From Promethearchaeota archaeon (GTDB taxonomy: Archaea > Asgardarchaeota > Lokiarchaeia > Sigyniarchaeales > SOKP01), in assembly GCA_016839765.1 (NCBI GenBank), contig JAEOTP010000007.1, forward strand, positions 1 to 64,000: a stretch of DNA of 64,000 bases, written 5' to 3'. Both the position numbers and the translations under genes were made by a program. The notes below the pieces were generated by a model. That model was given only the letters and a program-made list of their open reading frames with translations, was not told the DNA's origin and made no database searches. The stretch's first letter is position 1. Each line of letters begins with the position of its first letter. Shown here piece after piece: positions 1,304-20,066 of this stretch.

Positions 1304-3307
1304 TTATAGATTCAGCTGTTTCTTCCAAAATTTTATTTTTTTATCTGTATCTTCCCTTTCTGCTCTAGAAAGCAATTTAGGGATTGTTTTAAGAGCAGCA
1401 ATAGTAATACTCATTTGACTTAGAACTCTGGAATATCCCCTTTCTTCAACTATTTTGTTCCGCAAAAATTCAATATCAGAAGAAAGCTCACTGGCTAACT
1501 TATTATCTAAATTATTTAATATTTCAGTAAATAATTCTGATACTGATTTTCCTTCTAAATCTGTGGTTACGGGTTTAGGAATTTCAATGCTAGAATGGGG
1601 TTTGCTCTGAGGCTCAATTAAAGGTTTTTGTTCTAATTTTGGCTTTTGTTTTAGAGGCTCTAATGGTTCTACTTTTTTCGGTACAGTTTGTGTCTTAATT
1701 ACAGGCTCAGTTTTGAATGAAGTCGTTGGTTTAGGTATACTAATTTCCTTTTTAACATTAGTGGTAGGTTGTGGCATAATAGGTTCAAATTTCTTTTGAG
1801 GTGGTGCTTGAAAATCAGGACCTAAAGAATACATAATTTCTTCATCACTTATTTTTTTAGCCTGCATCCATACCTCTTCAAGAACACCTGCAAATAATTT
1901 TACATGTTCTTCAAGGATCGATCCCATACCAGCGATTTCCAATTCTGCTCCTTCTATTTTTGATACAGCACATACTACAACTTCTTCAAAATCTCTATTA
2001 ATAGCCCATAAATTTTCTCTTGGATAATGTCGAACACTCATGTTAGTATATTTTACAATTTCAGCAAGTTTAGCTTTATCCCTTGGATCACCCAAATTAA
2101 AATTAGTAGAAATTCTTACATTAGTATGCTTCTTTACTTTAGAAAGAGCTACTAAATCTACATCGGCTAATCTAGGCGCTATTATATGAACTCTCATTTT
2201 CAATCGCGTTAGCGCTTCATTAATCTGGGCTCTTATTCCTTCAACACTTCTAACAAACCAAACATCTTTAAACGTTAACATTGATGCTCTTTTGCTTCTT
2301 TCCCAAAACTCTGTCATTGTATCCTGCGAGAGATCAAGTTGATTAATGATACTCATCATGATATCTTCTTCAAGGGTTTTGTAAATTTCTTTTTGGAACA
2401 TTTCTTTCAGTTCCTCAATACCTTTTTCAACGTCCTCATAAACTGTAGATATTCTCTGATCTAAATCTTCTAGAGTTTCTCTTAATCGCCCTTCTATATC
2501 CGTAAAAACATCGCCCAAATCGCTAGACATCTCCCCTGCAGCATCTGATATCGTTGCGAGTTGGTTGGTTACCTGATCTAAAGTATTTTCAATTGTTTTT
2601 ACAAACTTTTCTTTAAAGTAATCAGTTAAGTCAACAAATTGCTCAGAAATAATCTTTGATACTATTTTTTCTGCCATACTTTTGAGTGCCCCAATCCTAA
2701 ACTGTTTTTCAAATGCATCTGAGATCTCTGATTTCATCTTATCTAAGCGTTCTTCTACAATTCCAAATTCTTTAAGAATTTCATCAGGTACTATTTCTCT
2801 TAAATTCAATATGAAACTTCGAATTTCTTGAAATCTCTTCACGCTCTCCAGCTCTTTTTCTACTCTACTAAATTGGGACTTCAATTGAGCTGGTAGATTC
2901 GTCTTCATCATATGGATATAATTACGATATTCATTGAGTTTTCCAATTTTAGCTGATTGTTCTTCAATTTCTCGAAATTTTAATTCTAAAGTCTTTGGAG
3001 TTGATTCCCGAATGGTTTTTACAACCTCTTTAAATTGCCCAATTTGGTTTAATAAAGCAGTATAGGGGGGTAAGGCAACATAAAACGGTGTTTTTCCGGG
3101 AACTTCTCTTACCAGCCCTTTATTAAGTAGGTTTTTTGCGATTTGAGAGGCTCTCTCTTCGGGAACATCTACTAAAAGGGCTATTTCTCCAACTAAAACC
3201 GGACCTCTACCAGTTAAATGGAAGTATGTATCAACCTCATCTTGAGTTAATCCAATTAATTCTAAAACTTGTTTAGTTGATTTAAATTCATCTTGTTCAA
3301 GAGACAT
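1304..3307 (-). CDS. TrmB-like winged-HTH protein with long coiled-coil, putative PLD-like effector domain and Pro/Lys-rich linker
   Basis: N-terminal LELIGLTQDEVDTYFHL...GEIA...LLNKGLV...YVALPP is TrmB-HTH-like; about 250-aa helical region; VWFVRSVEGIRAQINEAL...VHIIAP resembles the TrmB C-terminal PLD-like fold; PQPTT/PKPTT-rich linker. Confidence 0.6.
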   Translation of the reverse strand: MSLEQDEFKSTKQVLELIGLTQDEVDTYFHLTGRGPVLVGEIALLVDVPEERASQIAKNLLNKGLVREVPGKTPFYVALPPYTALLNQIGQFKEVVKTIRESTPKTLELKFREIEEQSAKIGKLNEYRNYIHMMKTNLPAQLKSQFSRVEKELESVKRFQEIRSFILNLREIVPDEILKEFGIVEERLDKMKSEISDAFEKQFRIGALKSMAEKIVSKIISEQFVDLTDYFKEKFVKTIENTLDQVTNQLATISDAAGEMSSDLGDVFTDIEGRLRETLEDLDQRISTVYEDVEKGIEELKEMFQKEIYKTLEEDIMMSIINQLDLSQDTMTEFWERSKRASMLTFKDVWFVRSVEGIRAQINEALTRLKMRVHIIAPRLADVDLVALSKVKKHTNVRISTNFNLGDPRDKAKLAEIVKYTNMSVRHYPRENLWAINRDFEEVVVCAVSKIEGAELEIAGMGSILEEHVKLFAGVLEEVWMQAKKISDEEIMYSLGPDFQAPPQKKFEPIMPQPTTNVKKEISIPKPTTSFKTEPVIKTQTVPKKVEPLEPLKQKPKLEQKPLIEPQSKPHSSIEIPKPVTTDLEGKSVSELFTEILNNLDNKLASELSSDIEFLRNKIVEERGYSRVLSQMSITIAALKTIPKLLSRAEREDTDKKIKFWKKQLNL

Positions 3308-3331
3308 TTTTTATAAAGACACCTTATATAA

Positions 3332-4459
3332 TTATTTTTTATAAATTTGTTCAAGTAATTCTAAATGCTTAACAGCAGTTTCTTTTTTTAATTTTACTTC
3401 AATTACTGCTTTACTGATATTTTCAATTAAATATTCTGGATAGAATGATTGAGCTATTAGATCAGTTAATAAAAAAACCCAAACCGTATCATCTTCATCC
3501 TTCAGAACTGCTATTATTTTATCATTTTCTAAAGCAATTAAAAACTTTTTTATTTGTTCAAAACTTTCTCCGGGACCTTTAGGGAGCTTATTAATAGGGT
3601 ATGGTTTCTCTCTAAGAAGAATAATATAATCAAAAATATCAGGATTTATCATATGAGCTGCAATTTTTAAATTATCATCAAAGGAAGGTTCATAGTCCGA
3701 GAAATAGTTTGTTGCTAATTCAAGATATTTATTAGCCAGATTTGGGTTTGGTATCCCTTTTCGAGCATCTTCAATTACTTTATTTACTGGAGCTCTCATA
3801 ATACTAAAATCTGAAAGTAGAAATAAACTTATATCTGGATCACCCTCAATCCAATCCTGTTTAACTAAATCAGTTTTTACGAATGGATCAAGTGAGTTAT
3901 CTAGATTTGCAATATATCTCCCTATTTTTTCTTCAAGCAAATTTCGTAATTCTGTTTTGGTTACTGCCCTCTCTTGTAGGATCTCTAAAATTTTTCTGCT
4001 TCTTTCGCTAGTGTAAATTTGAGCCATTATTTGCTCCTTTGTCAAATTTTTCAAACGCTCCAAAAAAAGTAAAGTATCTTTAACGTAATTAGTTAATTCT
4101 TTTGTTAATTCGTAAGAATCATTTGGATATTGATTAATACGTTTTAAATAGAGCAAAATGTTTCGATTTATTTGAGAAATTACCATTTCACCAAAAATCT
4201 CAGGATCTTCTCCTAATTCTAACATTAAGTTAATCATATATGGTTTTTCAGACTCCATACCTGTGAAATAGCTTGATACATTTGAGTGTGCTTTTTCCAG
4301 TCTAACTAATACTTGACCTGCTTCCCCTGCACCTGTGATATGAGCATAGAATATCCTCATCATATCATCTAAATCGATTATTATATTCTCTGGATAGCTA
4401 AACTTAACAATTAAACCTTGATCTTCTGACCATTCTGTTATTATTAATCCTTGAGGCAT
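3332..4459 (-). CDS. Asgard-type protein with N-terminal longin/uDENN-like domain and probable winged-helix region (paralogue of 8665-9789)
   Basis: N-terminal GLIITEWSEDQGLIVKFSYP resembles the uDENN/longin start; long near-identical stretch shared with 8665-9789; ATG directly follows the upstream TAA. Confidence 0.55.
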   Translation of the reverse strand: MPQGLIITEWSEDQGLIVKFSYPENIIIDLDDMMRIFYAHITGAGEAGQVLVRLEKAHSNVSSYFTGMESEKPYMINLMLELGEDPEIFGEMVISQINRNILLYLKRINQYPNDSYELTKELTNYVKDTLLFLERLKNLTKEQIMAQIYTSERSRKILEILQERAVTKTELRNLLEEKIGRYIANLDNSLDPFVKTDLVKQDWIEGDPDISLFLLSDFSIMRAPVNKVIEDARKGIPNPNLANKYLELATNYFSDYEPSFDDNLKIAAHMINPDIFDYIILLREKPYPINKLPKGPGESFEQIKKFLIALENDKIIAVLKDEDDTVWVFLLTDLIAQSFYPEYLIENISKAVIEVKLKKETAVKHLELLEQIYKK

Positions 4460-7400
4460 TTAACTCCCTCCATTTTGTAAATTATCACCTTTTTCAATTT
4501 TAGAATCCACTTGTTCTTTAAAAACTTTTTCGGATTTGATTGGTTTTAATTCCATTTGCTCAATTTTGTTTTTGAAATTCTCATTAACAATTTCTTCTCG
4601 TTTATTAAGCGATATTGGTTTAATTTTCTTTCCCTTCCTAACCTTTTTTCTCAATTTTCTTATTTTTCTTACTAGAGGAGGATATTTAAAGTGTTTCTGA
4701 TACAATCCAAAAACCGAAAGAAGTCCTATTATTACTGAAGAAAAAATAATAATGAGCCAGGTTAAGTCTAAACCTTCTCTTACATTAACACTTAAAGTTA
4801 TCTCATAGCTTTCAAAATCGTAATCATCTCCTGCAGAAGCTGTTATTGTTATGATATAAGTTCCTGAAGGTACATTTACTAAGTCTGCCTCATAAATACC
4901 ATCATTTTCAGGATCCAAAAGTAGTCCCTGTCCATAAGCCCATTTATAAGTCACTGTAGCATTTTTAATAAGTTCGCCAAATGGAAGCATATTGGTATTA
5001 TTTAATATGATAATTAGTTTAATAGTATCTCCTTCTAATCCAGTTATATAAGGTTCTCCCTCTAAAGTACTCGTTGTTATCTTTATGCGGTTGGTAGTAA
5101 TCCTTAAATCTATGGTTCTTATTTGAAAATTGTTTGCATGAGCCACAATCGTAAACAGACTCACTCCAATCTTTAAATTTGTCGTATTGAGATAAATACT
5201 ATATTGATTTAAATTTTCCGTGAAATTTAATGTATCACCCTCTCCTATCAATTGGACTAATGCACCAGAAATATGAAGTCCTGTTTGATTATCAGTATAA
5301 TATATTGTTACATTTAGAATATTGCCTATTGTAACTTCAATAACAGGATCAGGAGTCACATTTTCACGATCTAATAATAAATCTAATTCTGATTCTCTTT
5401 CAACTACTTCAACGAAAAATTGAATACTTTGAGCCTGATATTTATCCAACTGCGCAAATATAGTTAAAACAGTAATTCCTTGATCTAAATCATTTGTATC
5501 TATGGTTCTATTATAGTGACTACTTGTTTCAGTAAAATTTCCTCTTCCTATTAATGTTATAGTTGCACCATCAAGAAGCAATTGAGTTACATTATCCATA
5601 TAGTATACCGTAACATTGATAAATTCATTAACTTCGACTTGAATTTGATCACCATCATTTTTCGGAACACCATCTAAAAATAATAGTAAATCTGTTTCTC
5701 TTTCCACTATTTCAACGAAAAATTGAATACTCTCAGATTGATAATTATCCAATCGAGCAAATACGGTTAAAACACTAATACCAGGATCTAATTCATCAGT
5801 GTCTATAGTAATATTATATTGGTTATTTATTTCAGTTAGACTTAAATCCAACCCCGCCCCTTTCAAAGTTACATTAGCACCACTAAGATGTTGTTTAGTT
5901 ATATTATCTTGGTAATGTACTGTAACATTTATGAATTCATTAGCTTGAACTTGGATTGTATCCTTATCTGTTTTTAATTCACCATCTAAAACTAATGTTA
6001 AAGAAGACGCTAATTCAGTTATTGAAACCCTAATTAAAACAGACTGGGGTTCATATTTATACGGATTTATTGAAATTATGAACGATTGAAGCGTAAGTGC
6101 AGCATAAGCAGACGTATTACATTCTAATTCATACCGCCCAACACTGGGTTGAGTTAAGTGATAATCACCTAGCCATTCATCAATAGTAATATCTGTGGTA
6201 TCAATCCCAATTTGCGGATTATTCTTTTCAGTATAATTAAATCGCACTGTAAAATTTTGGCTCCAGGGAACAGTAAAAAAGTCAGTTTCGATAGTCAGAA
6301 TTGTCTGTTTAATTACCTCAACCGTAATATTTATGATTTTATTTGAATAATAGGTTGAATTAGCATAAATTGTTACAGTATTATTTCCTGCATTGGCTTT
6401 TGTAGCATTAAATTCATATAAGTAAAAACCTGGACTTATTCTATCAAAAGTTTCAATTGTTCCAGTAAAATCTGTGTATACTAATGCATAATCTATTGCA
6501 GATCCATCTACTAAATCACTAAATGATACTTTAATATTGATTATTCTGTCGTCAAACACGTTTTCAATGAAAAAAGTACCTTGATCAGGATAAAGGAGAG
6601 CCTCGTGGATTACAATAAACTTTTTATAAATAACTCCTGTCTCATTTGAACCAAAGAATGAATATGAATTATTCCAAGTAATAATCGCCTCATATTCTCC
6701 TGTTTCATAATTTGGAACATCATCAGGTATCATAATAGGATCAAAAAACACCATTCCTGTATCATCTACAGGCTTTAGCTGATTTTGTATTGACCAAATC
6801 GAACCATTTGGAAATTTTATTTGAAGCAATGCTTTTGTTTGTTGGATATATCCAGAAATCAATTGGGAATTATTAATCTTTCCTGTAATGTTAATATATT
6901 CTCCACTTAGAAATTCATTATTAAGCTCCCAATCGCCTGTAACATTATTGTATATGCCTATTTCTTTACAGTAATTAGGTGATACTGCTGTTAACTTCCA
7001 GAATCCATTTGTATTACTTGTTATGGAACTTACTGGAATATTTACAAACTTTTTGTTTCCATATTCTTTTATAGAAGTTTGAGAAAGAGAATCAGGATTT
7101 TGAGAGAAAAATACTCCTGTTAAACTATAATCAGAAGGATATTCAACTGTCATATTTGTTTCTTCGTATCCTGCTGGAATCTCCATATGTGCATACGTTG
7201 TCCAATTCACATTACTATTATTAGATGCGATAAAAGAGGAGCCTTGATAACTTAAATCAGGATCAGCAGTATAATAGGTTTCAGGACTAAATTTATTTGT
7301 AAACAAATTCAATTTTGTCTCAAGTTCTATTTTGTAACTTAACCAACTCCCCTCTTCTTCAAAAGTTAAAGGCCAATTCGAATCACTACTAAAATTAGCA

Positions 7401-8521
7401 ATTACTGATGTTTGGAGGCTTCCATTCCAATTACCAATAATACCAAGGTTACCTTCACCATAATTGACATTGTTTTTTACTTCTTCATTGTTTAACTGTA
7501 ATTCCAGTTGAGATGGCTTTGCTTTAGATTTTACAATTAACGATACGTTATCAAATAGTAAAGAATAGGATGTTGCATAACCAGGATTTTCATGTCCACT
7601 AACTCTTTTAAATTCTAAAGTAATATTCATGCTTTTAACACCATTAGGAAATAATTGTTCATCATTAGGATCTAAGTAAATTGATGGTGGATTATACCAT
7701 TGCCCACTAGAAGGGTTACCGCATGCCTCTAACATTGATGCAAGACCATTACCCCATAAAACTTTATTATTTACTATAGCTTGCAACACGAAATGATTAT
7801 TATATTGATCACTATATTTTGGAAAGACTGAAAAACTTAACCAAGCTTCCTCTACATCACCTCTATCAATTTCAAAAACGGTTTCCCACCAACATTTGTC
7901 ACCAACGTCATATTCCCCCGAAGAGTCTCCAATCTGTAATTCCAAGCAATCAGCTCCACCTGAACCGCTATAACCAGTATCATAATAATTTCCTGAAAAG
8001 TCATTATCATTTCCTATTATATCCCCCTCTTTAAATGTCCAATTGGCAACATAATTACTATCGTTATCATTTCCAGAATCAACATTATCATCAGGACCAC
8101 AATGAAAGGTTCCATTAATCCAATTCCGTGTATCATATAAATTTGTTATTGTAGAATTTAATTGATATCCATTCCATCCATATAACTCTACTTTTGCATG
8201 AGTATCATCATAAGAATTATTATTAAAACTAACTTCTAAATTTGATTTTGTATAATTAGCATAATGAGTCACGTTCCAAGGGGCTCCTGTTCCTCTGAAA
8301 GAATTATCAGAAGCTAAATCTTGAGTTTCTAAATTCTTAATCTGAAAATCTTCATTATTAATGTATTTTTGATCTTCAGACCCTAAATTAGCATTTATAT
8401 CAAGATATTTTAAAGAAGCCATTAAAATGAAACTGATTAAAATGCCCGATAAAACTAAAATTCGCTTTTTATTATATCGCTTTAATTTTGCATACCTATT
8501 TGTTTTTCCTGACAGTCTCAA
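4460..8521 (-). CDS. Large single-pass cell-surface protein with Ig-like repeats and conserved cytoplasmic tail (paralogue A)
   Basis: N-terminal hydrophobic signal; many N-x-S/T sequons; repeated ~100-aa beta units (INVTVxYxDNxT...GAxVxLxG...IQFFVE); DPENDGIYE loop; C-terminal TM followed by YQKHFKYPPLVRKIRKLRKK. Confidence 0.8.
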   Translation of the reverse strand: MRLSGKTNRYAKLKRYNKKRILVLSGILISFILMASLKYLDINANLGSEDQKYINNEDFQIKNLETQDLASDNSFRGTGAPWNVTHYANYTKSNLEVSFNNNSYDDTHAKVELYGWNGYQLNSTITNLYDTRNWINGTFHCGPDDNVDSGNDNDSNYVANWTFKEGDIIGNDNDFSGNYYDTGYSGSGGADCLELQIGDSSGEYDVGDKCWWETVFEIDRGDVEEAWLSFSVFPKYSDQYNNHFVLQAIVNNKVLWGNGLASMLEACGNPSSGQWYNPPSIYLDPNDEQLFPNGVKSMNITLEFKRVSGHENPGYATSYSLLFDNVSLIVKSKAKPSQLELQLNNEEVKNNVNYGEGNLGIIGNWNGSLQTSVIANFSSDSNWPLTFEEEGSWLSYKIELETKLNLFTNKFSPETYYTADPDLSYQGSSFIASNNSNVNWTTYAHMEIPAGYEETNMTVEYPSDYSLTGVFFSQNPDSLSQTSIKEYGNKKFVNIPVSSITSNTNGFWKLTAVSPNYCKEIGIYNNVTGDWELNNEFLSGEYINITGKINNSQLISGYIQQTKALLQIKFPNGSIWSIQNQLKPVDDTGMVFFDPIMIPDDVPNYETGEYEAIITWNNSYSFFGSNETGVIYKKFIVIHEALLYPDQGTFFIENVFDDRIINIKVSFSDLVDGSAIDYALVYTDFTGTIETFDRISPGFYLYEFNATKANAGNNTVTIYANSTYYSNKIINITVEVIKQTILTIETDFFTVPWSQNFTVRFNYTEKNNPQIGIDTTDITIDEWLGDYHLTQPSVGRYELECNTSAYAALTLQSFIISINPYKYEPQSVLIRVSITELASSLTLVLDGELKTDKDTIQVQANEFINVTVHYQDNITKQHLSGANVTLKGAGLDLSLTEINNQYNITIDTDELDPGISVLTVFARLDNYQSESIQFFVEIVERETDLLLFLDGVPKNDGDQIQVEVNEFINVTVYYMDNVTQLLLDGATITLIGRGNFTETSSHYNRTIDTNDLDQGITVLTIFAQLDKYQAQSIQFFVEVVERESELDLLLDRENVTPDPVIEVTIGNILNVTIYYTDNQTGLHISGALVQLIGEGDTLNFTENLNQYSIYLNTTNLKIGVSLFTIVAHANNFQIRTIDLRITTNRIKITTSTLEGEPYITGLEGDTIKLIIILNNTNMLPFGELIKNATVTYKWAYGQGLLLDPENDGIYEADLVNVPSGTYIITITASAGDDYDFESYEITLSVNVREGLDLTWLIIIFSSVIIGLLSVFGLYQKHFKYPPLVRKIRKLRKKVRKGKKIKPISLNKREEIVNENFKNKIEQMELKPIKSEKVFKEQVDSKIEKGDNLQNGGS

Positions 8522-8664
8522 TCACCTATAATTACTTTTATTTTTTTTCTTTGATTCCTATTTAAACTATAAAAGTTTTTAAGAAAATTTACATAGATAA
8601 TAAAATTTTCTCTTTAAATATTTTTATTATAATAAAAAGTTATAAAGTGATATACAAAGAGCAC

Positions 8665-9789
8665 TTATTTTTTATATACTTGTTCAAGAAGTTCTAAATG
8701 TTTAATAGCAGTATTCTTTTTTAGCTTTTTATCACTGACATTTTTTCTAATATTTTCAATCATATATTCTGGATAAAAAGTATGTGCAACAACATCAGTT
8801 AAGAGAAAAATCCAATCTAATCCTTTGTCATCTGTTATAAATGTAATTATGTTGTCTTTTTCTAATAAATTTAAAAATTCTTTAATTTGATCAAAGGTTT
8901 CCCCCGGGCTTTTTGGGATTTTATTGATAGGATATGCTTTATCTCTAAAAAGAGTTATAAAATCGTATTTATCTGGATTTATCATGTTACTAGCTACTTT
9001 TATGTTATCTTCAAAATTGGGTTTGTATGACCTAAAAAAACGTTTCACTTCTTCTAAATATTTCTGAGCCAATTTCGGCGTAGGTAAATTCTTTTCTGCA
9101 TCTTCTATTACTTTAATTGCTGGTGTTCTTATGATTGTAAAATCAGAGAGTAAAAACAACGATATATCTTGATCTCCCTCTATCCAATCTTGTCTAATTA
9201 AATCAGTTTTAATAAAGGGGTCTAATGTAATTTCGAGATTATAAATTGATCTTCCTAATTTAACTTCTAAAGTATCTCTTAATTCTTTTCGAGCAAAAGC
9301 TTTGTCTTGTAATGTTTCTAATATTTTTCTTCCCTTTTCACTGACATAAATTTGAGCCATTCGTTGTTCTTTACTAAGATTTTTAAGACGTTCAAGTAGA
9401 AAAAGAGATGATTTAAGATAATCTTTTAATTCTTCATTAATCTCATAGCTTCGAGAGGGATTTTCTACCATCGCATTTAAATAATTCATTGTATTGGTAT
9501 TAATTTCTGAAATTACAATTTCACCAAATATTTCAGGTTCTTCATCTAATTCCAGCATCAAATTAACCATAAAAGGTACTTTGGAATCCATACCTGTAAA
9601 GTAACTGGAAACATTTGCCCGTGCTTTTTCCAATCTAACTAACACATTACCTGCTTCTGCAGCTCCAGTAATATGAGCATAAAAAATTCTCATCATATCA
9701 TCTAAATCAACAATTATAGTTTGGGGATAGCTAAATTGCACTGCTAAACCTTCATCAGTCCATCTAGTTATTATAAATCCTTTTGGCAT
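8665..9789 (-). CDS. Asgard-type protein with N-terminal longin/uDENN-like domain and probable winged-helix region (paralogue of 3332-4459)
   Basis: Shares DLDDMMRIFYAHITGAxEAGxVLVRLEKAxxNVSSYFTGM, LDPFxKTDLxxQDWIEGD and FYPEYxIENI with 3332-4459. Confidence 0.55.
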   Translation of the reverse strand: MPKGFIITRWTDEGLAVQFSYPQTIIVDLDDMMRIFYAHITGAAEAGNVLVRLEKARANVSSYFTGMDSKVPFMVNLMLELDEEPEIFGEIVISEINTNTMNYLNAMVENPSRSYEINEELKDYLKSSLFLLERLKNLSKEQRMAQIYVSEKGRKILETLQDKAFARKELRDTLEVKLGRSIYNLEITLDPFIKTDLIRQDWIEGDQDISLFLLSDFTIIRTPAIKVIEDAEKNLPTPKLAQKYLEEVKRFFRSYKPNFEDNIKVASNMINPDKYDFITLFRDKAYPINKIPKSPGETFDQIKEFLNLLEKDNIITFITDDKGLDWIFLLTDVVAHTFYPEYMIENIRKNVSDKKLKKNTAIKHLELLEQVYKK

Positions 9790-9796
9790 CTATATT

Positions 9797-12643
9797 TCAC
9801 TCCTCTTTATTTTTTTCTAAGTTTTTAAAATTTTCAACTTTTTTAAATTGTTCTTGTTCAAATTCTAAAATTTTAATTTGATCTTTATAATTACTTTCCA
9901 TTATTTCATTTCGGTTATTTAATGGAACCATTTTTAATTTCTTTTCTTTCCTAATTTTCTTTTTTAGCTTCCGTATTTTTCTAACCATAGGCGGGTATTT
10001 GAAATGAGTTTGGTATAATATAAAAAATAAAGAAAGACCTGCAATACCTCCAATTAATAAATATACAAGCCAACCTAAATCTTCACCAACAGTAGGAATG
10101 GCACTTATAGTTATGTCAAAACTTTGGAACGAATAATCATCACCAGCATAAGCATTAATTGTTATACTGTAAACACCTTCAGGGATATCTGAGATATATG
10201 CTTCATAAACCCCATCATTGTCGAGATCTGTTAGTTCTCCCTGTCCATAAGCCCATCTATATGTAACAGTAGCATTCTTAATAAGTCCCCCAAAATCAGT
10301 ATTATTTAAAACAATACTTAACAATATTCCCCCTCCTGGTTCTGTTTCAAATAATGTATTTCCTAATGTTGTAATAATCATTCCGCTTATTTTTTCTACA
10401 GTTAATCTTAGCAATATTGTTTTAATCTGGAAATTGTTTTTATATGCTATGATATTTATCAAATTAACTCCTATTTGCAAATGTGAAGTATTAAATAAAG
10501 CCGAGTAATGATTTAAAGCGACATATTCTGTTAAATTTTCTGAGAAGGTTTCAGCATTAACTTGTACAATTGCCCCACTGATATGAAATCCTGTGATATT
10601 ATCAAGGTATTTAATAGTGATATTGAGCATTTCTCCAATAGTGATTTCATAAGTAGGGTTTAAGGTTTTTTCTTCATTTTCTATAAAAAGTTGTATATCT
10701 GTTTCTCTTTCAGATACTCCAACATAAAATTGAATAGTCTGAGGTTTATAATCTTCAATTAAGGCGTTAATAGTAAGAACTGCAATTCCTTCTTCTAAGT
10801 CATTCGTAGAGATTGTAATATTATATTGTTCAGAGGTTTCATTTAGCTCTCCAAATCCCGATAAACTAACTGTTGCGCCGCTTAAATGTTGTTTTGTGTT
10901 ATTATCTCTATAGTAAACTGTAATATTTAAAAATTGATTAACTTCTACGTCTATTGTATCACTATTATTTGTTAAATCTTTATTTACATATAACAACAAT
11001 TCTGAAGATATTTCAGTAACCTCCACGAAAAATTGGAGGATTTGGGTTTCATAATTATCTTTTTGGGCAGAAACAGATAAAGTTTTAACTCCAATTCCTA
11101 ATTGGGATGTATTTACTAAAATTGAATATTGTTGAGAACCTGTAGTTTCATTTATAAAATCTGATATTTTTCCGTGTAATTGAACAGTAGCATTAGATAT
11201 ATGAGCCCCCGATTGCTTTTCATCGTATTTAATAGTAATATTTAACAATTCGTTTGATTGGATTTGAATAAATGGGTCACTTGTTTTATTATCACCTTCT
11301 AAGAATAAATCTAATTTCGTTTGAATGTCAGGAACAGTCTCTGCATATGAAATGTTAAGGTAAACATCATCTATTGAAATCGTTATATTTCTATTTAATG
11401 CAAAAGTATTGGCAATGAATACTTGGATTGAAACCGAGATATTAACGTCTTTCAAAATCAAATAAGTAACATCAAAACCTCCTGGTTTAGCTTCTTGAAA
11501 AGTTTCATTTGCAGAACTTAATCTAATTGTTTCTGTATGTTGATTATCGTTAATTACAACTCGTATTTCAGAAAATGGTGAATCCGCTGTTGGCCATAGC
11601 TGATCAATTTTATACATAAAAGTAAGTCTAGCATCAGTGATTTGGATATTACCGCCTGTAATTGTATTACCAATTTGGTTCCATGATATTGAAGAAAATT
11701 GATCAATCTTTTTCTTTACTGTAAAAGTTAGATTACAAGTTTTAATCATTAAATCACTAAAAGTATCGGTATCAGGACCCCCGAGATTATCTTCAGAGTA
11801 TATATCAATTCCTAAAGTGAGTGTGAAATTTGAATGCGAGGGATCTTTTTCAAAAGCAGATTTTAAAGCAGTTATTAAATCAATTTCATTTACAGTTTGC
11901 AATGGGCTGTCTGATATAGTTAATATTGATGGAGAATTTTGTCCTAAATATTTTGTTTTATTTGAAGCTACTGTATATTTTGGAGGATTATATCCTAAAT
12001 CTGAAATTTGACAATAGAATGTAACCGAATCTCCTATTGCAAAATTTTCCCAATACGCACTATCATTCGGTGTATCGATATTATTACTAACAGAAGCATT
12101 CACAATTACTTCTAAAAATACTGATACGATATCATAATCTGTCATGTCAAGGGGTAAGCTAATATTTGTTCTCCATTGAGCACTTGGAAATTGATTAGGA
12201 TCATCAGTCCATTCATGGCTAGCATAGCAACCATCAGGTGTCATCATAACCGTATCTGGTGGGAGAAAACCTGTCTTATTAAAATATTTCCAACCAGGAG
12301 ATGTAGATGAATTAATAGTATCTGAAATTACAGTAAATGTTTGCATTTCACCTAATACTTCATAATTTGCTTGATTATTACTAATATTCGCATCAACTGT
12401 AGAATTATCTCCTTGATCTCCTTTTAAATAAAACCAATAATCTTGAGTTGAAAAATCATTGTTTTTTAACCATTGCTTGGAATGTAAAATCTCACCAGAG
12501 CTGTGAATATTCTTATTATTATCATCTACTTCTATTTGGAAATCAAATTGATTTATAAAAGTTATATAAAAGTTAGAGAAAATTATTATAAACAAGAAAA
12601 CTAAGCTATAAATCTTTACATTTTTTTTATTCAACCATATCAC
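9797..12643 (-). CDS. Single-pass cell-surface Ig-like-repeat protein (paralogue B)
   Basis: Signal/TM at the N-terminus; same repeat units; DLDNDGVYE; TM followed by YQTHFKYPPMVRKIRKLKKK. Confidence 0.8.
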   Translation of the reverse strand: MIWLNKKNVKIYSLVFLFIIIFSNFYITFINQFDFQIEVDDNNKNIHSSGEILHSKQWLKNNDFSTQDYWFYLKGDQGDNSTVDANISNNQANYEVLGEMQTFTVISDTINSSTSPGWKYFNKTGFLPPDTVMMTPDGCYASHEWTDDPNQFPSAQWRTNISLPLDMTDYDIVSVFLEVIVNASVSNNIDTPNDSAYWENFAIGDSVTFYCQISDLGYNPPKYTVASNKTKYLGQNSPSILTISDSPLQTVNEIDLITALKSAFEKDPSHSNFTLTLGIDIYSEDNLGGPDTDTFSDLMIKTCNLTFTVKKKIDQFSSISWNQIGNTITGGNIQITDARLTFMYKIDQLWPTADSPFSEIRVVINDNQHTETIRLSSANETFQEAKPGGFDVTYLILKDVNISVSIQVFIANTFALNRNITISIDDVYLNISYAETVPDIQTKLDLFLEGDNKTSDPFIQIQSNELLNITIKYDEKQSGAHISNATVQLHGKISDFINETTGSQQYSILVNTSQLGIGVKTLSVSAQKDNYETQILQFFVEVTEISSELLLYVNKDLTNNSDTIDVEVNQFLNITVYYRDNNTKQHLSGATVSLSGFGELNETSEQYNITISTNDLEEGIAVLTINALIEDYKPQTIQFYVGVSERETDIQLFIENEEKTLNPTYEITIGEMLNITIKYLDNITGFHISGAIVQVNAETFSENLTEYVALNHYSALFNTSHLQIGVNLINIIAYKNNFQIKTILLRLTVEKISGMIITTLGNTLFETEPGGGILLSIVLNNTDFGGLIKNATVTYRWAYGQGELTDLDNDGVYEAYISDIPEGVYSITINAYAGDDYSFQSFDITISAIPTVGEDLGWLVYLLIGGIAGLSLFFILYQTHFKYPPMVRKIRKLKKKIRKEKKLKMVPLNNRNEIMESNYKDQIKILEFEQEQFKKVENFKNLEKNKEE

Positions 12644-12658
12644 CTCTAAGTAAACCAG

Positions 12659-15529
12659 TTAAAGAGTTTCTCCTCCTTGTTTTATATTATTTTGAATATT
12701 TGTTTCTTTAATATCTCCTTTAATTTCGCTTTTTTTCTCAACTTCAGTTTCTATTACTTCTAATTTACTTTTTAAATTAGTTTCAATAATATCTTCCCGA
12801 TTTTGAAGCGGTATGGATTTAAGTTTCTTGTTTTTACTTACTTTCTTTCTAAGTTTTCTAATTTTTCTAACTAGAGGGGGATATTTAAAGTGTTTCAGAT
12901 AAGAAACAATTATGATTACAAGGCCTAAAGCGCTACTACCCAAAATAATAACTAACCATTTCCAATCTAATCCTGGAGGTACGGATACGCTAAAAACAAT
13001 CTCATATTCATCAAATTCATAGTTCTCACCAGCGTAAGCAGTTATTGTCATAATATATATGCCTCCTGGAATATTTTCAAAATAAACTTCATAAATACCA
13101 TCATTATCGAGATCAAAAAGTTCTCCTTGCCCGTGAGCCCAACGGTAAGTAACTGTAGCATTTTTGATAAGTCCTCCATAGTCAGTATCATTTAGAGATA
13201 TCATTAATGTATAAGACTCTTCGGGTTCAAGGTAGATTTTAGTTTCACCTGAGACAGTACTGATATTTGCCCGTATTCTATTAACATTTATTCTAATATT
13301 TACAGTATTAATGTTATAATCTGTAGCCTGTGCGACTACTGAAAATAATTTAGGCCCTAGTTGAAGCTCCGTAGAGTTTAGAACTGTAGAATATTGATTT
13401 AAAGTCATATTTTCTATTAAATCTATGGATAACCCTTCTCCAATTAATTGTAGAGTCCCTCCACTTATATAACTCCCTGTTGAATTATCTTTATATCTAA
13501 TAGATACGTTTACCATTTTCCCTATAGGAACATCAATAACAGGATCTGAAGTTTCATCCTCTCCATTAAATAATATTTGTAATTGGGTCGATCTCTGGAT
13601 TACATAAATAAAAAATTTGATTGTTTGAGTTTGATAATTGTTTAATTGAGCAAAAATAGTTAGAATATTAGTCCTTAAATTTAGATCATTTGAGTTTATA
13701 GTAATATTATAATAGTTAATATTTTCATCCAGAAATCCAAATCCTAATAATTCTATAGTTGCCCCACTTAGATGATTGTCAGTAATAAAATCTTTAAAAA
13801 AAACCGAAATATTAATAACTTCATCCACTTCAATTTGCATAGTTTCACTATCGGCTTTTGGATCACTATTAACATACAATGATAATACTGTTCCTCTTTC
13901 ATATACTTCAACAAAGATTTGAGTCAATTGGCTTTCATAATTCGTTTTTTGAGCTTCTACCGAAAGGATTCTGCTTCCAATACCTAACTGGGAAGAATTA
14001 ATGAAAATTGAATATTGTTCATAGGTTTCATTTTCTGGCAAAGGACCCGAGACTATTCCATCTAATTGTACGGTAGCATTTGGGATATGAGAACTAGTTA
14101 GACTATCTCTATATTTAACGGTTATATTTAATATAACATCAATCGGGAGTTGAATTACAGGGTCAGATGTTTTATCATCACTATTTAAAAATAATGTTAA
14201 TTCAGTTGGATAATCAGTAAAGGTTTCAATATATGTAATATTAAGGAACACATCATCAATTGAAATTGTAATGCTCTCATTCAATTCAAACGTATCTTTA
14301 ATGAAAGTTTCAATTGAAACAGTAATATTAATATCTTTTAAGATAAAAGTAGTAACATTAAACCCACCTGGTTTTGCTTCTTGAAATGTACTAGTTGCAG
14401 AGCTTATTTTAATACTTCCTTCTTCAAATTTTCTATCATTAATGTAAAAGTTTATTTCGGAAAGAGGAGCTGTGGTCGGCCAACTTTTATCTATTGAATA
14501 ATTAAAATTGAATATCGCATCTCTTATTTGGATATTACCTCCTGTAATTGTATTACCAATTTGGTTCCATGATAATGAAGTAAATTGATTTATTTTTTTT
14601 TCATAGGTGAATGTAAGATTAAAAGACTTGAAAATTAAAGCATTCCATAAATCATAATCCGGAAAATCATTATCTTCACAGTAAATATCTATACCCATTA
14701 TTAATGTAAATCTAGAGTGACCAACGTCCTTTTCTAAAGCCAAGTTTAAGGCAGTTATAAGATCATTCTCACTTACATAAGATAATTCCCTATCAGGAAT
14801 AGTTAATATTGGAGGACTATCCTGTCCTAAGGTTTGAGTTTTATTTTCCGCTACCCTAAATGCATAACTACTATTTAAATCTGAGATTTCAACATAGAAA
14901 GTTGCTGAATCCCAAATTGCTGATTGCCCTACACTATCACCAGGAGCATCAACATTAGCATCTACACTTGCGTTAAAAAACACCTCAAGTGAAGCAAATG
15001 TAATTTCATAGTCGGACATATCTACGGGCATATTCACATTCTTTTTAAAATGAACACTTGGAAAATTATGTACTTGGCCTGCCCCTCCATTCTCATTTTC
15101 ATCTAAATAATGATAAACATAACAACCCGTTGCATTAATTTCGGTATGATCAGGTAAAAGATAATCACTATTGTTATATATTCCCCATCCATACCAGGTA
15201 GAAGAATTTACATTACCCGAAAGGATATTAGATGTTTGCATTTCACCTAATACTTCATAATTTGCTTGATCAGGACTAGTTGTTGCGTTCATATCTGAAT
15301 TGTCTCCTTCTGTTCCATTTTTCCAAAACCAAATTGGTTTAATAGGATCATCAAATGTTGGATTTTTAATCCATTGTTTTGTTATTGTTCTTTCAGCTGA
15401 AGAATGAACATTTTCACTTATTTCCGAGCTAAATGATTCAAAATCAGATAAATAATGTCTAAATGGAACTAAAATTAAAATTGTAAGTAATAAAAAAACA
15501 AAAAGATAAATTTTACTTTTCTTTTCCAT
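12659..15529 (-). CDS. Single-pass cell-surface Ig-like-repeat protein (paralogue C)
   Basis: Collinear with paralogue B; DLDNDGIYE; TM followed by YLKHFKYPPLVRKIRKLRKK. Confidence 0.8.
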   Translation of the reverse strand: MEKKSKIYLFVFLLLTILILVPFRHYLSDFESFSSEISENVHSSAERTITKQWIKNPTFDDPIKPIWFWKNGTEGDNSDMNATTSPDQANYEVLGEMQTSNILSGNVNSSTWYGWGIYNNSDYLLPDHTEINATGCYVYHYLDENENGGAGQVHNFPSVHFKKNVNMPVDMSDYEITFASLEVFFNASVDANVDAPGDSVGQSAIWDSATFYVEISDLNSSYAFRVAENKTQTLGQDSPPILTIPDRELSYVSENDLITALNLALEKDVGHSRFTLIMGIDIYCEDNDFPDYDLWNALIFKSFNLTFTYEKKINQFTSLSWNQIGNTITGGNIQIRDAIFNFNYSIDKSWPTTAPLSEINFYINDRKFEEGSIKISSATSTFQEAKPGGFNVTTFILKDINITVSIETFIKDTFELNESITISIDDVFLNITYIETFTDYPTELTLFLNSDDKTSDPVIQLPIDVILNITVKYRDSLTSSHIPNATVQLDGIVSGPLPENETYEQYSIFINSSQLGIGSRILSVEAQKTNYESQLTQIFVEVYERGTVLSLYVNSDPKADSETMQIEVDEVINISVFFKDFITDNHLSGATIELLGFGFLDENINYYNITINSNDLNLRTNILTIFAQLNNYQTQTIKFFIYVIQRSTQLQILFNGEDETSDPVIDVPIGKMVNVSIRYKDNSTGSYISGGTLQLIGEGLSIDLIENMTLNQYSTVLNSTELQLGPKLFSVVAQATDYNINTVNIRINVNRIRANISTVSGETKIYLEPEESYTLMISLNDTDYGGLIKNATVTYRWAHGQGELFDLDNDGIYEVYFENIPGGIYIMTITAYAGENYEFDEYEIVFSVSVPPGLDWKWLVIILGSSALGLVIIIVSYLKHFKYPPLVRKIRKLRKKVSKNKKLKSIPLQNREDIIETNLKSKLEVIETEVEKKSEIKGDIKETNIQNNIKQGGETL

Positions 15530-16673: not shown

Positions 16674-19600
16674 GTGAAACCAATGAAAAAAGCAAAAATC
16701 CTAACTATCTATATTCTTCTTTCACTTTTAATATTAAAAACTAGTAATATTAACAATTTCTATACCTCTAGGAATGAGAGTGACAAAATTGTAAAAACGT
16801 CTGATTCTTCATATAGTGGTGGCGGATACATTATGAATACCGAAGCAGCATATGCATGGGAAGAAATAAACTCTACGGGTACTCTTTTAGGAAATTTAAC
16901 TCAATTTGTTGTTAAAGAAGTAAACTTTACTGAAGGTGGATGGAGTTTTACATTTTACAATACATTATATGATAAGATTTATGTTCGTACCCAAGGTTGG
17001 ATGACTTTTACTGAGTTTGGTATATTGGGTTACTGGCCAATACCATCAATACAATCATTCGATTATGATTTTGTTGCTTTAATGATGACTTCACCAAGCC
17101 TTGACATAAGTTCAGGAGGAAATATCTATTATCAATTCTTAACCTCCCCAAATAGATTAGTAATAGAATATTCCGGTATGTATGATCAAATGGCTCAACT
17201 TGTAGGGGATTTTGAGGTGATTTTCTATGAAACAGGCGCTATAAAATTTCAATATAAGGATGTTTATAATGTGTTTTCACAATCTCCTGTGATAGGCTTA
17301 GATCACGGAGATGAGCTAAACTATAATTCATATACACCTGATTTGCCTATGCAATCAAAAGCCATTGAATTTACATTTGATCAGATGGTTGATCCCAATT
17401 TTGGACTCAATTTTAAGACAAATGAAGAATTTCCCTGGATAGTAACTCAAATTGATGAGGATAAATTAGAATCTTTTTACGGCTCAGACTGGGAAGATAA
17501 TTTTGGGTTTTTATCAGATCCACTTATCGGAGATAAGATGAAGATAAATATCTCATCAATCTATGAAAATTCTACGGATTGGGAAATATCCTTTGATTTA
17601 TGGGATTGGAATAGCAGATATGATACCTTCCCAAGTTCTACTGGATCAGATAATTTAGTCTATAAAAAAGACCCTTATACATATAACCACCATAACTTAA
17701 CTAATATTATGCCGCTGCTTTTACCGAATCGAACAAAATTTTACTTACGTAGAGCGAATTTATCCCATCAATATCATGTGTCGGATATCATGGGTGGTGT
17801 TTATGTGAGCTGGCATGAATTAAAATCTATAGGTGGGGATAGTATTAGTATAGACATTTCTTCAGTTTATAATCCTGATGGGATACTAGATAAGATGCAA
17901 ATTAAATGGGATAATCACACATCCAATGAACAAAAGACAATATTCAACCTTGAAACGCTCACATCATGGTTTTTAGAAGAATCATCTTTGTCAACCCAAT
18001 TAAATGATGAACATTGGTTTTATATGCGAGATGCAAATGATACAATTATGCAAACCTTTTTTGGTTCGAACTGGGAGCAACTTTTTGGAATCCCTTCCAA
18101 TTCATTTTCAGATAGCAAATTCAAAATGAAAATTACATCAACTGGAGAAAACTTAACCCATTGGATAACTAATTATTCATTATGGGACTGTATTTATAGA
18201 GATGACGCATTTATTTCACCACCAACTCTAAATAAGTCTGTTTTGTACCTAAAAGAGCCATTAAATTACACAGAACCACATATTTGGGATCCAATCTTTC
18301 CACTATTTTTACCAAAACCAGGAAGGATGTATACTGACTATGCCAATTTAAATTATTCATTTTATTCAATTCCAGATTCCTCCTCATTTTATCCTCCACA
18401 ATTGAGCTTTTTCATGAGTACTATGACAGAATCCATTCAAGCTAGAGCAATTTATAGTATGGATGGATATTTGCAAGAAATTATTATTCGGCAATCAGAA
18501 TATGATTTCATGACAGGAACTACAACATTTATACCTGTTCTTACAATTTCTCATTTTACTGAAGGAGCAGTTCCATCTTATGTAGGGATAAATCCTGGGG
18601 AAACTTACTCATATGGCATATTTAATTGTTCAAAAGTATATCCATATGGTTACTCACAATATAAAAGAATGAACATTACTATTGATTATATTTCTGGAGA
18701 AGATTTTTATCTTGAAAGGGTTCTTACTTTAATAAATTTTAGCTTTCTAAGCGCTAGCGATGTTTGGGGCGATGATATTGATCCATATGCAGCTCTTGGT
18801 GTTCCTATCAGTGAGATAAATTACATTTTTCCAAATTCATCAGAAAACATTTATTTATTTACGAGTCCACCTTTGTTTTTTGAAATTGGAGTTGATTGGG
18901 GAGACTATGTGGTTGCACTTGAGGCTGTACTTAAACAATTAATTTCCCCAGGCTATGATATAGTTATTGTAAATTTAACCAACGGATTTATGATCTCACA
19001 AGAGTATATGCCAGGGCAATTTGGGGATCAAATATATAAGTATACCTCAAATGGCGTTTTAGAAACGATATCTTTTGTGATGGACGGTAAAGAATTCTAT
19101 ACTATCAGATTGAATGATTTTGATTACGTTATGGAAGGGTGTGATATTTATGATCCAATAATAACCATAAATTCACCAACACCAAATAGTTTCCATGATT
19201 CTCAACCGCCACCAGTAGACCTCTCTATTGAAGAACATTATTTAGATACTGTATGGTATAATTTAGATAATGTATCTGTACAAACAAGTAACTACACATA
19301 TACAGGCTCAATTCCACAGGGTGTATGGGATCAAGTTGGAAATGGAACAGTTACTATTACATTTTATGCCAATGATACTAATGGAAACGAAGGATTTGCT
19401 TATGTTATTGTAAATAAAGATATATTTGCTCCAGATATTACAATAAATTCACCTGCCGATGATCAGGAATTTACTGACACAGCCCCTACTTTCGATCTTA
19501 CAATAATCGAAACTAACTTAGATTCCATCTGGTATTCGTTTGATGATGGAGTCACAAATTACCCATGTGGGATATCCGGTCAGATTGATGGGACTGTATG

Positions 19601-20066
19601 GGATAGTTTAGCAGATGGGATATTAACTCTTAGATTTTATGCTTATGATTTAGCTGGAAACGTAGATTATTCTGAGGTTAACATAGAAAAAGATGTAACT
19701 GCTCCAGACATTACAATAAATTCACCAACCCACAATCAGGAGTTTACTGACACAGCCCCTACTTTCGATCTTACAATAGTCGATCCTAATTTAGATTCCA
19801 TTTGGTACTCATTTGATAACGGAATCACAAATTACCCATGTGGGATATCCGGTCAGATTGATGGGACTGGATGGGATAGTTTAGCAGAAGGAATGTACAC
19901 TCTTCGATTTTATGCCAATGATACTTTTGGATATGAGGGATATTCCGAAGTTATTATAATTAAAACTTCAGAAATTATTCCTGGATTTCCATTTTATGGT
20001 ATAGCAATTTTTCTATCAATAGGAATAATAGCAATAATACCTCAACTGAGGAAAAAAATCAAATAA
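16674..20066 (+). CDS. Cell-surface glycoprotein: NIDO-like N-terminal domain, C-terminal Ig-like repeats, Loki-CTERM/PGF-CTERM-like sorting signal
   Basis: Signal peptide (ATG at 16683 is an alternative start); FTFYNTLYDKIYVRTQGWMTF...FEVIFYETGAIKFQY; three PxITINSP repeats; C-terminal IPGF + TM + RKKIK. Confidence 0.75.
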   Translation: MKPMKKAKILTIYILLSLLILKTSNINNFYTSRNESDKIVKTSDSSYSGGGYIMNTEAAYAWEEINSTGTLLGNLTQFVVKEVNFTEGGWSFTFYNTLYDKIYVRTQGWMTFTEFGILGYWPIPSIQSFDYDFVALMMTSPSLDISSGGNIYYQFLTSPNRLVIEYSGMYDQMAQLVGDFEVIFYETGAIKFQYKDVYNVFSQSPVIGLDHGDELNYNSYTPDLPMQSKAIEFTFDQMVDPNFGLNFKTNEEFPWIVTQIDEDKLESFYGSDWEDNFGFLSDPLIGDKMKINISSIYENSTDWEISFDLWDWNSRYDTFPSSTGSDNLVYKKDPYTYNHHNLTNIMPLLLPNRTKFYLRRANLSHQYHVSDIMGGVYVSWHELKSIGGDSISIDISSVYNPDGILDKMQIKWDNHTSNEQKTIFNLETLTSWFLEESSLSTQLNDEHWFYMRDANDTIMQTFFGSNWEQLFGIPSNSFSDSKFKMKITSTGENLTHWITNYSLWDCIYRDDAFISPPTLNKSVLYLKEPLNYTEPHIWDPIFPLFLPKPGRMYTDYANLNYSFYSIPDSSSFYPPQLSFFMSTMTESIQARAIYSMDGYLQEIIIRQSEYDFMTGTTTFIPVLTISHFTEGAVPSYVGINPGETYSYGIFNCSKVYPYGYSQYKRMNITIDYISGEDFYLERVLTLINFSFLSASDVWGDDIDPYAALGVPISEINYIFPNSSENIYLFTSPPLFFEIGVDWGDYVVALEAVLKQLISPGYDIVIVNLTNGFMISQEYMPGQFGDQIYKYTSNGVLETISFVMDGKEFYTIRLNDFDYVMEGCDIYDPIITINSPTPNSFHDSQPPPVDLSIEEHYLDTVWYNLDNVSVQTSNYTYTGSIPQGVWDQVGNGTVTITFYANDTNGNEGFAYVIVNKDIFAPDITINSPADDQEFTDTAPTFDLTIIETNLDSIWYSFDDGVTNYPCGISGQIDGTVWDSLADGILTLRFYAYDLAGNVDYSEVNIEKDVTAPDITINSPTHNQEFTDTAPTFDLTIVDPNLDSIWYSFDNGITNYPCGISGQIDGTGWDSLAEGMYTLRFYANDTFGYEGYSEVIIIKTSEIIPGFPFYGIAIFLSIGIIAIIPQLRKKIK
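19428..19960 (+). repeat. Intragenic tandem duplication with a 273-nt (91-aa) period, encoding Ig-like domains
   Basis: GCTCCAGAYATTACAATAAATTCACC at 19428 and 19701; identical blocks such as TTTACTGACACAGCCCCTACTTTCGATCTTACAATA and TCACAAATTACCCATGTGGGATATCCGGTCAGATTGATGGGACTG in both copies. Confidence 0.9.

Follow-up and report, generated by a model that had tools for sequence, protein, structure and literature searches.

What connects a set of unlike cell surface proteins to one small cytoplasmic protein? The question is raised by a cassette of six close-set open reading frames (ORFs) on the minus strand of a contig from a Promethearchaeota archaeon (GCA_016839765.1, contig JAEOTP010000007.1), analysed over positions 1-64,000 of its forward strand (the window, with a GC content of about 30% throughout). 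In order, the cassette encodes receptor C (12659..15529, 956 residues), receptor B (9797..12643, 948 residues, GTG start), adaptor 2 (8665..9789, 374 residues), receptor A (4460..8521, 1353 residues, TTG start as listed), adaptor 1 (3332..4459, 375 residues) and a protein with a TrmB-type helix-turn-helix (HTH) domain and a coiled coil (1304..3307, 667 residues), referred to below as the 1304 protein. The intergenic spacing from receptor C to the 1304 gene is 15, 7, 143, 0 and 24 nt, and the stop codon of receptor A directly abuts the ATG of adaptor 1. We cautiously favour the view that these genes form a receptor-adaptor-output cassette, a locally expanded copy of a phylum-wide Asgard system.

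The three receptors can be aligned only over their C-terminal ~500 residues (833-1335 of A against ~436-876 of B and C), at 46-48% identity, and nothing in B or C corresponds to the first ~830 residues of receptor A. The common region consists of three repeats of about 100 residues, a domain with the signature NATVTYxWAxGQG...NDGxYE, one transmembrane (TM) helix and a basic cytoplasmic tail, HFKYPP[LM]VRKIRKL[RK]KK, whose conservation far exceeds that of the TM helix. The original prediction, made from the letters of the sequence alone, had described the gene order, the gaps and the abutment just as the ORF coordinates give them. Its further statements, that the three receptors share a membrane-proximal domain and a tail more conserved than the TM helix while the N-terminus of A is unrelated, agree with the pairwise alignments.

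The association between receptor and adaptor extends well beyond this locus. A hidden Markov model (HMM) of the TM helix and tail finds exactly 8 ORFs in the genome at E < 1e-15, the next best match scoring 0.004, and all 8 are located in cassettes with adaptor paralogs, on contigs C96, C14 and C59. Three are the receptors of the window, four lie in tandem on C14, divergent from their adaptor, and one is on C59, where the receptor stop codon again abuts the adaptor ATG to give a split pair. The two proteins also occur as one. Receptor-adaptor fusions make up 9 of the best 150 representative clusters, as proteins of 588-2548 residues, and a search for longer relatives yielded at least 72 clusters at 90% identity, many with LamG, CarboxypepD_reg or DUF2341 domains. 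The fusions are laid out as a LamG/transthyretin-like ectodomain, a TM helix, a tail (e.g., KIPxFVKKVR), a linker of about 70 residues and a complete adaptor.

The same pairing is found in other families, where 13 of 20 adaptor loci directly adjoin a type I protein of 860-2400 residues with the juxtamembrane motif, in either gene order and often with gaps of 0-3 nt or overlaps. In five near-complete genomes from five families, 9 of 17 tail matches adjoin a full-length adaptor, where chance would give about 1% each; among tail matches outside the set used to build the model, the count is 4 of 12. Of 151 sampled Asgard genomes, 118 have the adaptor family (42 of 52 genera), with up to 11 copies per genome. 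The tail was found in 74 of the 151; each of these also has the adaptor, and no tail was found in the 33 genomes without it. Furthermore, the adaptors that neighbour KYP-type and KIPxFVKK-type tails form separate clades with supports of 97-98, even within one genome. This tree was a quick IQ-TREE run, in which five rows appear as "other" or tail-less through parsing or locus-boundary artefacts rather than biology (four were read from the wrong HMM domain, and one has a receptor that extends into the next fetched locus). Some near-identical adaptor orthologs, at 63-70% identity to a Loki-type protein, carry the labels Thor-, Hermod-, Hod- and Heimdallarchaeota; these come from one NCBI batch of metagenome-assembled genomes and look unreliable for judging the range of the family.

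Receptor and adaptor are also gained or lost together. Adaptors 1 and 2 are 64% identical over their full length, and the ortholog of adaptor 2 is 96% identical in two close relatives, G138 and G077. In G138, whose partner proteins are 96% identical to those of the window, the locus reads MFS, TrmB, adaptor 2, B, C, SDR. The window and G077 carry exactly receptor A and adaptor 1 in addition, and receptor A is 87% identical between these two. The breakpoint of this extra segment (window 3332-8664 against locus L039, G138:C310) falls exactly at the adaptor stop codon, consistent with recombination at the conserved 3' ends of the two adaptor genes. Two expectations of the original prediction, that receptor and adaptor had been co-duplicated and that tail-bearing genes would be linked to the adaptor family in other genomes, are thus borne out by this unit inheritance and by the adjacency, phyletic pattern and natural fusions. 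It is highly probable that receptor and adaptor constitute one functional module.

The other cassettes of the genome differ in detail. That on C14 (locus L012, C14:6001-21000) has four tandem receptors of 545-581 residues with KYPxPxRKxRKY tails, which diverge from a 418-residue adaptor and a TrmB-type protein of 723 residues with an extra N-terminal CxxC...HGxPPH segment; upstream lie one gene for a 141-residue protein and two for proteins of ~350-385 residues. A cassette of this type is present twice in genome G144. Receptors of the C59 type (L013:3466-7755:-) and their fused homologs have a PGF/PGIP-like motif just ahead of the TM helix and a longer conserved cytoplasmic stretch past the tail (SESLLY...KW..IGLSLE..LGI), which is kept in both split and fused forms.

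The tail is the most constant part of the receptors. The TM helix and juxtamembrane tail are encoded at 12791..12970 in receptor C (KHFKYPPLVRKIRKLRKKV), at 9905..10084 in receptor B (THFKYPPMVRKIRKLKKKI) and at 4592..4771 in receptor A (KHFKYPPLVRKIRKLRKKV), all on the minus strand, with the TM helix at residues 858-876 of C and 1255-1273 of A. The cytoplasmic tails are 70-78 residues long and have a net charge of +13 to +16 over their first 33 residues, with receptor A at +16. Over 30 tail codons, there are 13 synonymous-only codon differences between A and B, 8 between A and C, and 10 between B and C. Such numbers point to purifying selection on the peptide and rule out recent gene conversion as the source of the identity.

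Across the family, the pattern that follows the TM helix is [RK]-h-P-x-x-h-[KR]-[KQ]-h with an invariant Pro, which in the window receptors takes the form KYPPLVRKIRKL. Only the Pro is fixed: it can be preceded by I, V, R or Y, and the reading of YPPL as a YxxPhi or YPxL (ALIX) sorting signal was rejected at the family level. In the model of a fused protein (P0168, from an alignment with 66 fused homologs), the chain kinks at the invariant Pro, and the tail helix has a predicted local distance difference test score (pLDDT) of 93, against 78-87 for the TM helix.

The adaptor side of the module was modelled with AlphaFold2. From an alignment of 55 sequences, adaptor 1 gave a pLDDT of 94.8 and a predicted template modelling score (pTM) of 0.89. 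DSSP assigns strands at 4-11 and 15-22, a helix at 30-41, strands at 48-54, 59-65 and 74-81, and a helix at 91-110, which is the longin topology (bbabbba) over residues 1-110. A helical linker follows, then winged helix 1 (wH1, ~141-223), winged helix 2 (wH2, ~259-342) and C-terminal helices; adaptor 2 likewise has a longin domain and two winged helices. Structural searches with the longin domain returned FLCN (Z 11.8), Lst4 (Z 11.7), the solved Lokiarchaeal Roadblock-Longin protein (Z 11.6), FNIP2 (Z 11.6), a GATOR1 chain (Z 11.3), and C9orf72-SMCR8 and DENND1A (both Z 10.4). At the level of chains, these include 6nzd_H from the FLCN complex (Z 11.8, root-mean-square deviation 3.1, 131 residues aligned), 4zy8_C (11.7), 8yqg_B (11.6) and 8fw5_B (11.3). 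Foldseek aligned the entire adaptor model to GATOR1 chains of 362-370 residues over about 370 columns. The winged helices, in the model of a fused protein, match MecI, RosR and cullin WH-B at Z 8.7-9.2.

By these models, the 375-residue adaptor is an FLCN/Lst4/NPRL-type longin with two winged helices, in keeping with the longin and winged-HTH folds that had been proposed for it. A longin domain followed by two or more winged HTH domains is the described make-up of NPRL2 and NPRL3 (PMC5681675), and the architecture of the adaptor is therefore NPRL2/3-like. Families of "NPRL2-like longins" have previously been listed in Asgard archaea (bioRxiv 10.1101/2020.10.19.343400; PMC9834061), and the adaptor family is probably among these asCOGs. 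At the sequence level, neither adaptor matches Pfam NPR2 (PF06218) or NPR3 at E <= 1, and a profile search of the PDB with the adaptor gave only ArsR-type winged-helix matches and no NPRL2.

The receptors have the hallmarks of surface glycoproteins. Each has a hydrophobic N-terminal signal or anchor and a single C-terminal TM helix, and their ectodomains contain 2.8-3.2 N-x-S/T sequons per 100 residues (2.8 in receptor C); across the genome, the median is 0.47 and the 95th percentile 1.63. Receptor C is thus laid out as an N-terminal signal/TM segment, a variable head, the three repeats, the membrane-proximal beta-sandwich, the TM helix and the basic tail, and its paralog, receptor B, has the identical architecture. 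Modelling of a related fused protein shows the membrane-proximal domain as an immunoglobulin/macroglobulin-like beta-sandwich that matches macroglobulin domains at Z 9.7-9.9.

The heads vary between close relatives. Compared with the G138 ortholog, receptor C is 45-56% identical over residues ~100-300 (14630..15232) and 84-97% over the remainder of the protein. The corresponding segment of receptor B (11744..12346) is 40-54% identical in G138 and 40-55% in G077, with about 90% elsewhere in the protein, and the cytoplasmic partner proteins are 96% identical to those of both genomes. Since identity drops to 40-56% over residues ~100-300 while the rest stays near 90%, the heads are polymorphic at the strain level, and the suggestion that variable heads are carried on a constant tail holds for these relatives.

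Processing of PGF-like motifs by an archaeosortase was considered and rejected: the window receptors have no PGF motif, their tails are 70-78 residues long, and a search of the 96%-complete genome for archaeosortase (PF09721) found none. A 1130-residue surface protein encoded nearby on the plus strand (16674-20066) and built of Big_13 repeats does not have the adaptor-linked tail; its end is a PGF-CTERM-like anchor (PGF, TM, RKKIK).

The last member of the cassette is the 1304 protein. It starts with a TrmB winged HTH at residues 16-81 (PF01978, E 4.5e-11, 42.9 bits against a cut-off of 25.6), which is the sole domain recognised by Pfam or NCBIfam in the six cassette proteins. Next comes a long stretch of helix, then a conserved domain of alpha/beta appearance (~335-490), which a linker rich in Pro and Lys joins to a helical domain at the C-terminus; the chain ends in FWKKQLNL. 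A PDB profile search with the family returned coiled-coil noise only, and for the domain at ~335-490, the ESM Atlas offered sub-threshold leads (0.82-0.83) to Regulator_TrmB and PLDc_2 clusters.

Several lines of evidence tie this protein to the adaptor. On C14, the adaptor is followed by a full-length paralog (29% identity, E 1e-93), and in the family to which the window belongs, at least 12 genomes have an ortholog right beside the adaptor. In two other families, proteins of 461 residues (L035:5023-6408:+ in G001 and L036:4377-5762:- in G053) join an adaptor-type longin (E 3e-29 and 3e-34) to a TrmB HTH (Pfam E 7e-10 and 1.8e-9) and the C-terminal domain of the 1304 family (E 5e-50), without the long coiled coil. 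These longin-TrmB proteins are a second, independent fusion link, and they fit the habit of longin domains to pair together. The link between TrmB-type protein and adaptor, put forward in the original prediction from adjacency at one locus, therefore rests on paralogy, adjacency and fusion combined. Other adaptors are fused to SIR2_2+TPR (P0189 and P0219) or to helix-hairpin-helix repeats, which suggests that the outputs are interchangeable.

Elsewhere in the window, a 404-residue protein (20834-22048, minus strand) has an adaptor-type longin N-terminus (HMM positions 3-117, E 1.4e-8) and a long coiled coil, and could be a longin partner for the adaptors. Convergent with it and about 5 kb from receptor C is a Roadblock/LC7 gene (20269/20365-20724, plus strand; Pfam E 2e-10). 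Elsewhere in the genome, a receptor-less adaptor paralog (C6:75943-77016) lies beside an Arf-like GTPase. A 1352-residue protein encoded 3.5 kb from it (C6:80480-84538) has an N-terminus that by eye resembles the SIR2-like part of P0189 and P0219 and a C-terminus that by eye looks TPR-like. The cassette does not correspond to a known anti-phage defence system. Scanned with PADLOC, five of the six proteins matched nothing, while the coiled coil of the TrmB protein gave only weak matches to the tail of ZorA (E 8e-5), and this candidate was rejected.

How might such a cassette work? The receptors are large, glycosylated type I surface proteins with a hypervariable distal head on a constant stalk of beta-sandwich repeats, and their TM helix passes directly into a basic amphipathic helix starting at the invariant proline. 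The adaptor, acidic and cytoplasmic, with a gene translationally coupled or fused to that of the receptor, would work physically at the receptor's inner side and might sit on the juxtamembrane helix, whose net charge is +13 to +16. Whether the tail is in fact the adaptor's docking site seems to us evenly balanced. From there, the adaptor would link what the variable head encounters outside the cell with a cytoplasmic output that can be exchanged; the system could serve in signalling, in sorting or in anchoring. In the lineage of the window, that output would be the TrmB-type protein, acting either as a membrane-held and released transcription regulator or as a coiled-coil scaffold. Transcriptional output through the TrmB domain, for which DNA binding is presumed, is a tentative suggestion. 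Also tentative is a more specific version, in which the module serves polymorphic surface recognition, be it of a partner, of kin or of a virus, and signals through an NPRL2/C9orf72-type longin that grips the juxtamembrane helix and feeds interchangeable outputs; it would then be a prokaryotic forerunner of eukaryotic longins that read membrane protein tails.

A number of observations weigh against the receptor-adaptor-output scheme or limit its reach. The sole hint of contact between tail and adaptor is the pLDDT of the tail helix in the fused model, and an inward flow of information is likewise presumed. The tail is near-invariant even where receptor and adaptor are covalently fused, so simple recruitment is not its whole role; it may instead bind the membrane surface or a third partner. 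Seven of the 20 adaptor loci in other families have no receptor neighbour, the four tail-bearing genes of G038 are all distant from its sole adaptor, and 44 adaptor-positive genomes have no detectable tail. The 1304-type protein is present in 55 of the 151 genomes (at E <= 1e-12), only part of the phylum, and is therefore a lineage-specific partner. By a manual count of residues, its N-terminal winged-HTH region is net acidic, and the domain at ~335-490 finds no sequence match in Pfam, NCBIfam or the PDB. Nor was a kinase, a GTPase or any other enzyme of classical signalling found conserved nearby.

The alternative that fares best is one of anchoring or biogenesis, in which the receptors are parts of the cell coat and the adaptor and coiled-coil protein serve as a cytoplasmic anchor, chaperone or positioning scaffold to hold, sort or space them, comparable to the way in which the membrane retains an S-layer stalk. 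We regard it as somewhat doubtful. The membrane-proximal beta-sandwich and TM helix of the fused model resemble SlaB, which anchors the S-layer of Sulfolobus (Z 10.7 over 129 aligned residues), and longin-fold subunits of the adaptor protein (AP) complexes and of the signal recognition particle (SRP) receptor, which the adaptor matches at Z 8-9.6, do sorting and targeting. The third partner, moreover, is largely coiled coil, and the cassette has no conserved enzyme. Lokiarchaeal cells have been described as lacking an ordered S-layer and bearing many complex surface proteins (PMC9834061); the receptors may correspond to these proteins. However, hypervariable heads, and the presence in one genome of several paralogous receptor classes that pair with separate adaptor clades, suit recognition better than a uniform coat, and the SIR2_2+TPR and longin-TrmB HTH fusions resemble signalling outputs. 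Many giant surface proteins of the genome, such as that at 16674-20066, also do without the tail.

The fold of the adaptor suggests another possibility, that it regulates a GTPase. It would then act as a GTPase-activating protein (GAP), like NPRL2, FLCN and C9orf72-SMCR8, or as a guanine nucleotide exchange factor (GEF), like DENN proteins and Mon1-Ccz1, on an Asgard Rag- or Arf-like GTPase, and the tail would only localise it. The top structural matches are indeed GAP and GEF longins (FLCN, Lst4, GATOR1 chains, C9orf72-SMCR8, DENND1A). The loop between beta1 and beta2 has the motif W-D-x-x-x-G (W10 in 51 of 55 sequences, D11 in 42, G15 in 53) with the same spacing as W33-D34...G38 of C9orf72 (PMC12290439), the two copies in the window having S/T instead of the Asp. 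A Gtr1/RagA-like GTPase is encoded 7 kb from the C59 cassette, and the Arf-like GTPase beside the C6 paralog and the Roadblock and longin/coiled-coil genes 5 kb from receptor C point the same way.

The catalytic features, as defined in the same paper (PMC12290439), are nevertheless missing. A conserved arginine finger is absent: Arg reaches at most 23 of the 55 sequences in any column of the longin domain, and at position 13, where it is partly conserved, both window adaptors lack it. Nor does the GP motif keep its Pro, the residue after G15 being A, V or L and never a conserved Pro. Small GTPases were found in 2 of 24 loci, and near no receptor-linked adaptor of the genome, by a strict G1/G3/G4 scan that misses Rag/Arf-like forms. 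Searches of the genome with Pfam NPR2 (PF06218) and with DEPDC5/Iml1 (PF12257) found nothing, a weak argument because the control genomes (14 for PF12257) were empty as well. On balance, GTPase regulation appears improbable.

Least credible is the idea that the adaptor is itself a membrane-sequestered or tethered transcription factor, with ArsR-like winged helices on DNA and release on receptor engagement: wH2 does match ArsR/SmtB-type regulators by fold (Z 8-9) and marginally by profile (PH1932, E 3e-4), and two members have been named transcriptional regulators by the Joint Genome Institute (JGI), but the adaptors are acidic proteins (isoelectric point, pI, 4.9 for adaptor 1 and 5.3 for adaptor 2) whose winged helices are acidic as well (pI 4.9 and 4.6), which argues against DNA binding; wH2 has a net charge of -6 and a D/E-rich consensus recognition helix where ArsR/SmtB proteins read DNA with a basic one; winged helices of NPRL2/3, ESCRT-II and cullins bind protein, with cullin/APC2 WH-B matched at Z 8.7-8.8; and no conserved release protease is encoded nearby.

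Returning to the receptor-adaptor-output scheme, each of its parts has known relatives. NPRL2 and NPRL3 (yeast Npr2 and Npr3; GATOR1/SEACIT) share with the adaptor a size of about 375 residues, the order of longin and then winged helices, and a longin score of Z 11.1-11.3 against GATOR1/SEA chains. Unlike them, the adaptor has no Pfam NPR2/NPR3 match, conserved arginine finger or GP motif, and its partners are surface receptors and a TrmB-type protein rather than Rag GTPases. With the non-catalytic members C9orf72, FNIP and NPRL3, it shares the longin fold (Z 9.6-10.4) and the lack of an arginine finger of its own, and its W-D-x-x-x-G motif is spaced as in C9orf72. In contrast to C9orf72, its longin is followed by winged helices and not by a DENN module, and no Arg-bearing longin partner was identified. 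The N-terminal domains of AP sigma and mu and the longin-peptide complex of VAMP7 (Z 8-11) follow a similar logic, in which a longin reads the short tail of variable membrane proteins, a contact that here would have to be the one proposed between tail and adaptor. There are, however, no other AP subunits, and the tail is a basic amphipathic helix with a Pro, not a YxxPhi or dileucine signal.

The 1304 protein resembles the TrmB family of archaeal sugar-sensing regulators in its N-terminal winged HTH, a helical region of the dimerisation type and a C-terminal globular domain. It differs in a helical insertion of about 250 residues, the Pro/Lys-rich linker and the extra C-terminal domain, in always being paired with or fused to an adaptor-type longin, and in a C-terminal effector domain that Pfam, including its model of the TrmB effector-binding domain (PF11495), and NCBIfam do not recognise. 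As for the receptors, TgrB1 and TgrC1 of Dictyostelium are polymorphic single-pass recognition receptors with immunoglobulin-like stalks. The receptors are like these or SlaB-type stalks in their beta-sandwich repeats, strain-variable distal region and single TM helix with a functional tail, although there is no sequence relationship and the cytoplasmic partners are unrelated.

The folds of the components are thus known, and what appears to be new is how receptor tail, adaptor and TrmB-type protein are put together. No description of this arrangement was found in the literature on Asgard longins and surface proteins, of which our coverage was incomplete; what was found on NPRL2-like longins in Asgard archaea is the listing of the families (bioRxiv 10.1101/2020.10.19.343400) and their fusions to two-component domains, and the papers covered do not connect them with membrane proteins.

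For the Asgard archaea, the finding gives an abundant longin family a concrete partner, the conserved inner tail of strain-variable surface glycoproteins. If the proposed contact between tail and adaptor is true, this would be the first receptor-to-adaptor pathway in these organisms, and a peptide of about 20 residues with a soluble protein of 375 residues would provide a biochemical handle on partner sensing. The module would also be a plausible ancestor of longin adaptors that read tails and of the membrane-bound NPRL/FLCN-type modules. And if the receptors do serve polymorphic recognition, it would represent a forerunner of the placing of GATOR/folliculin-type longin modules on membranes.

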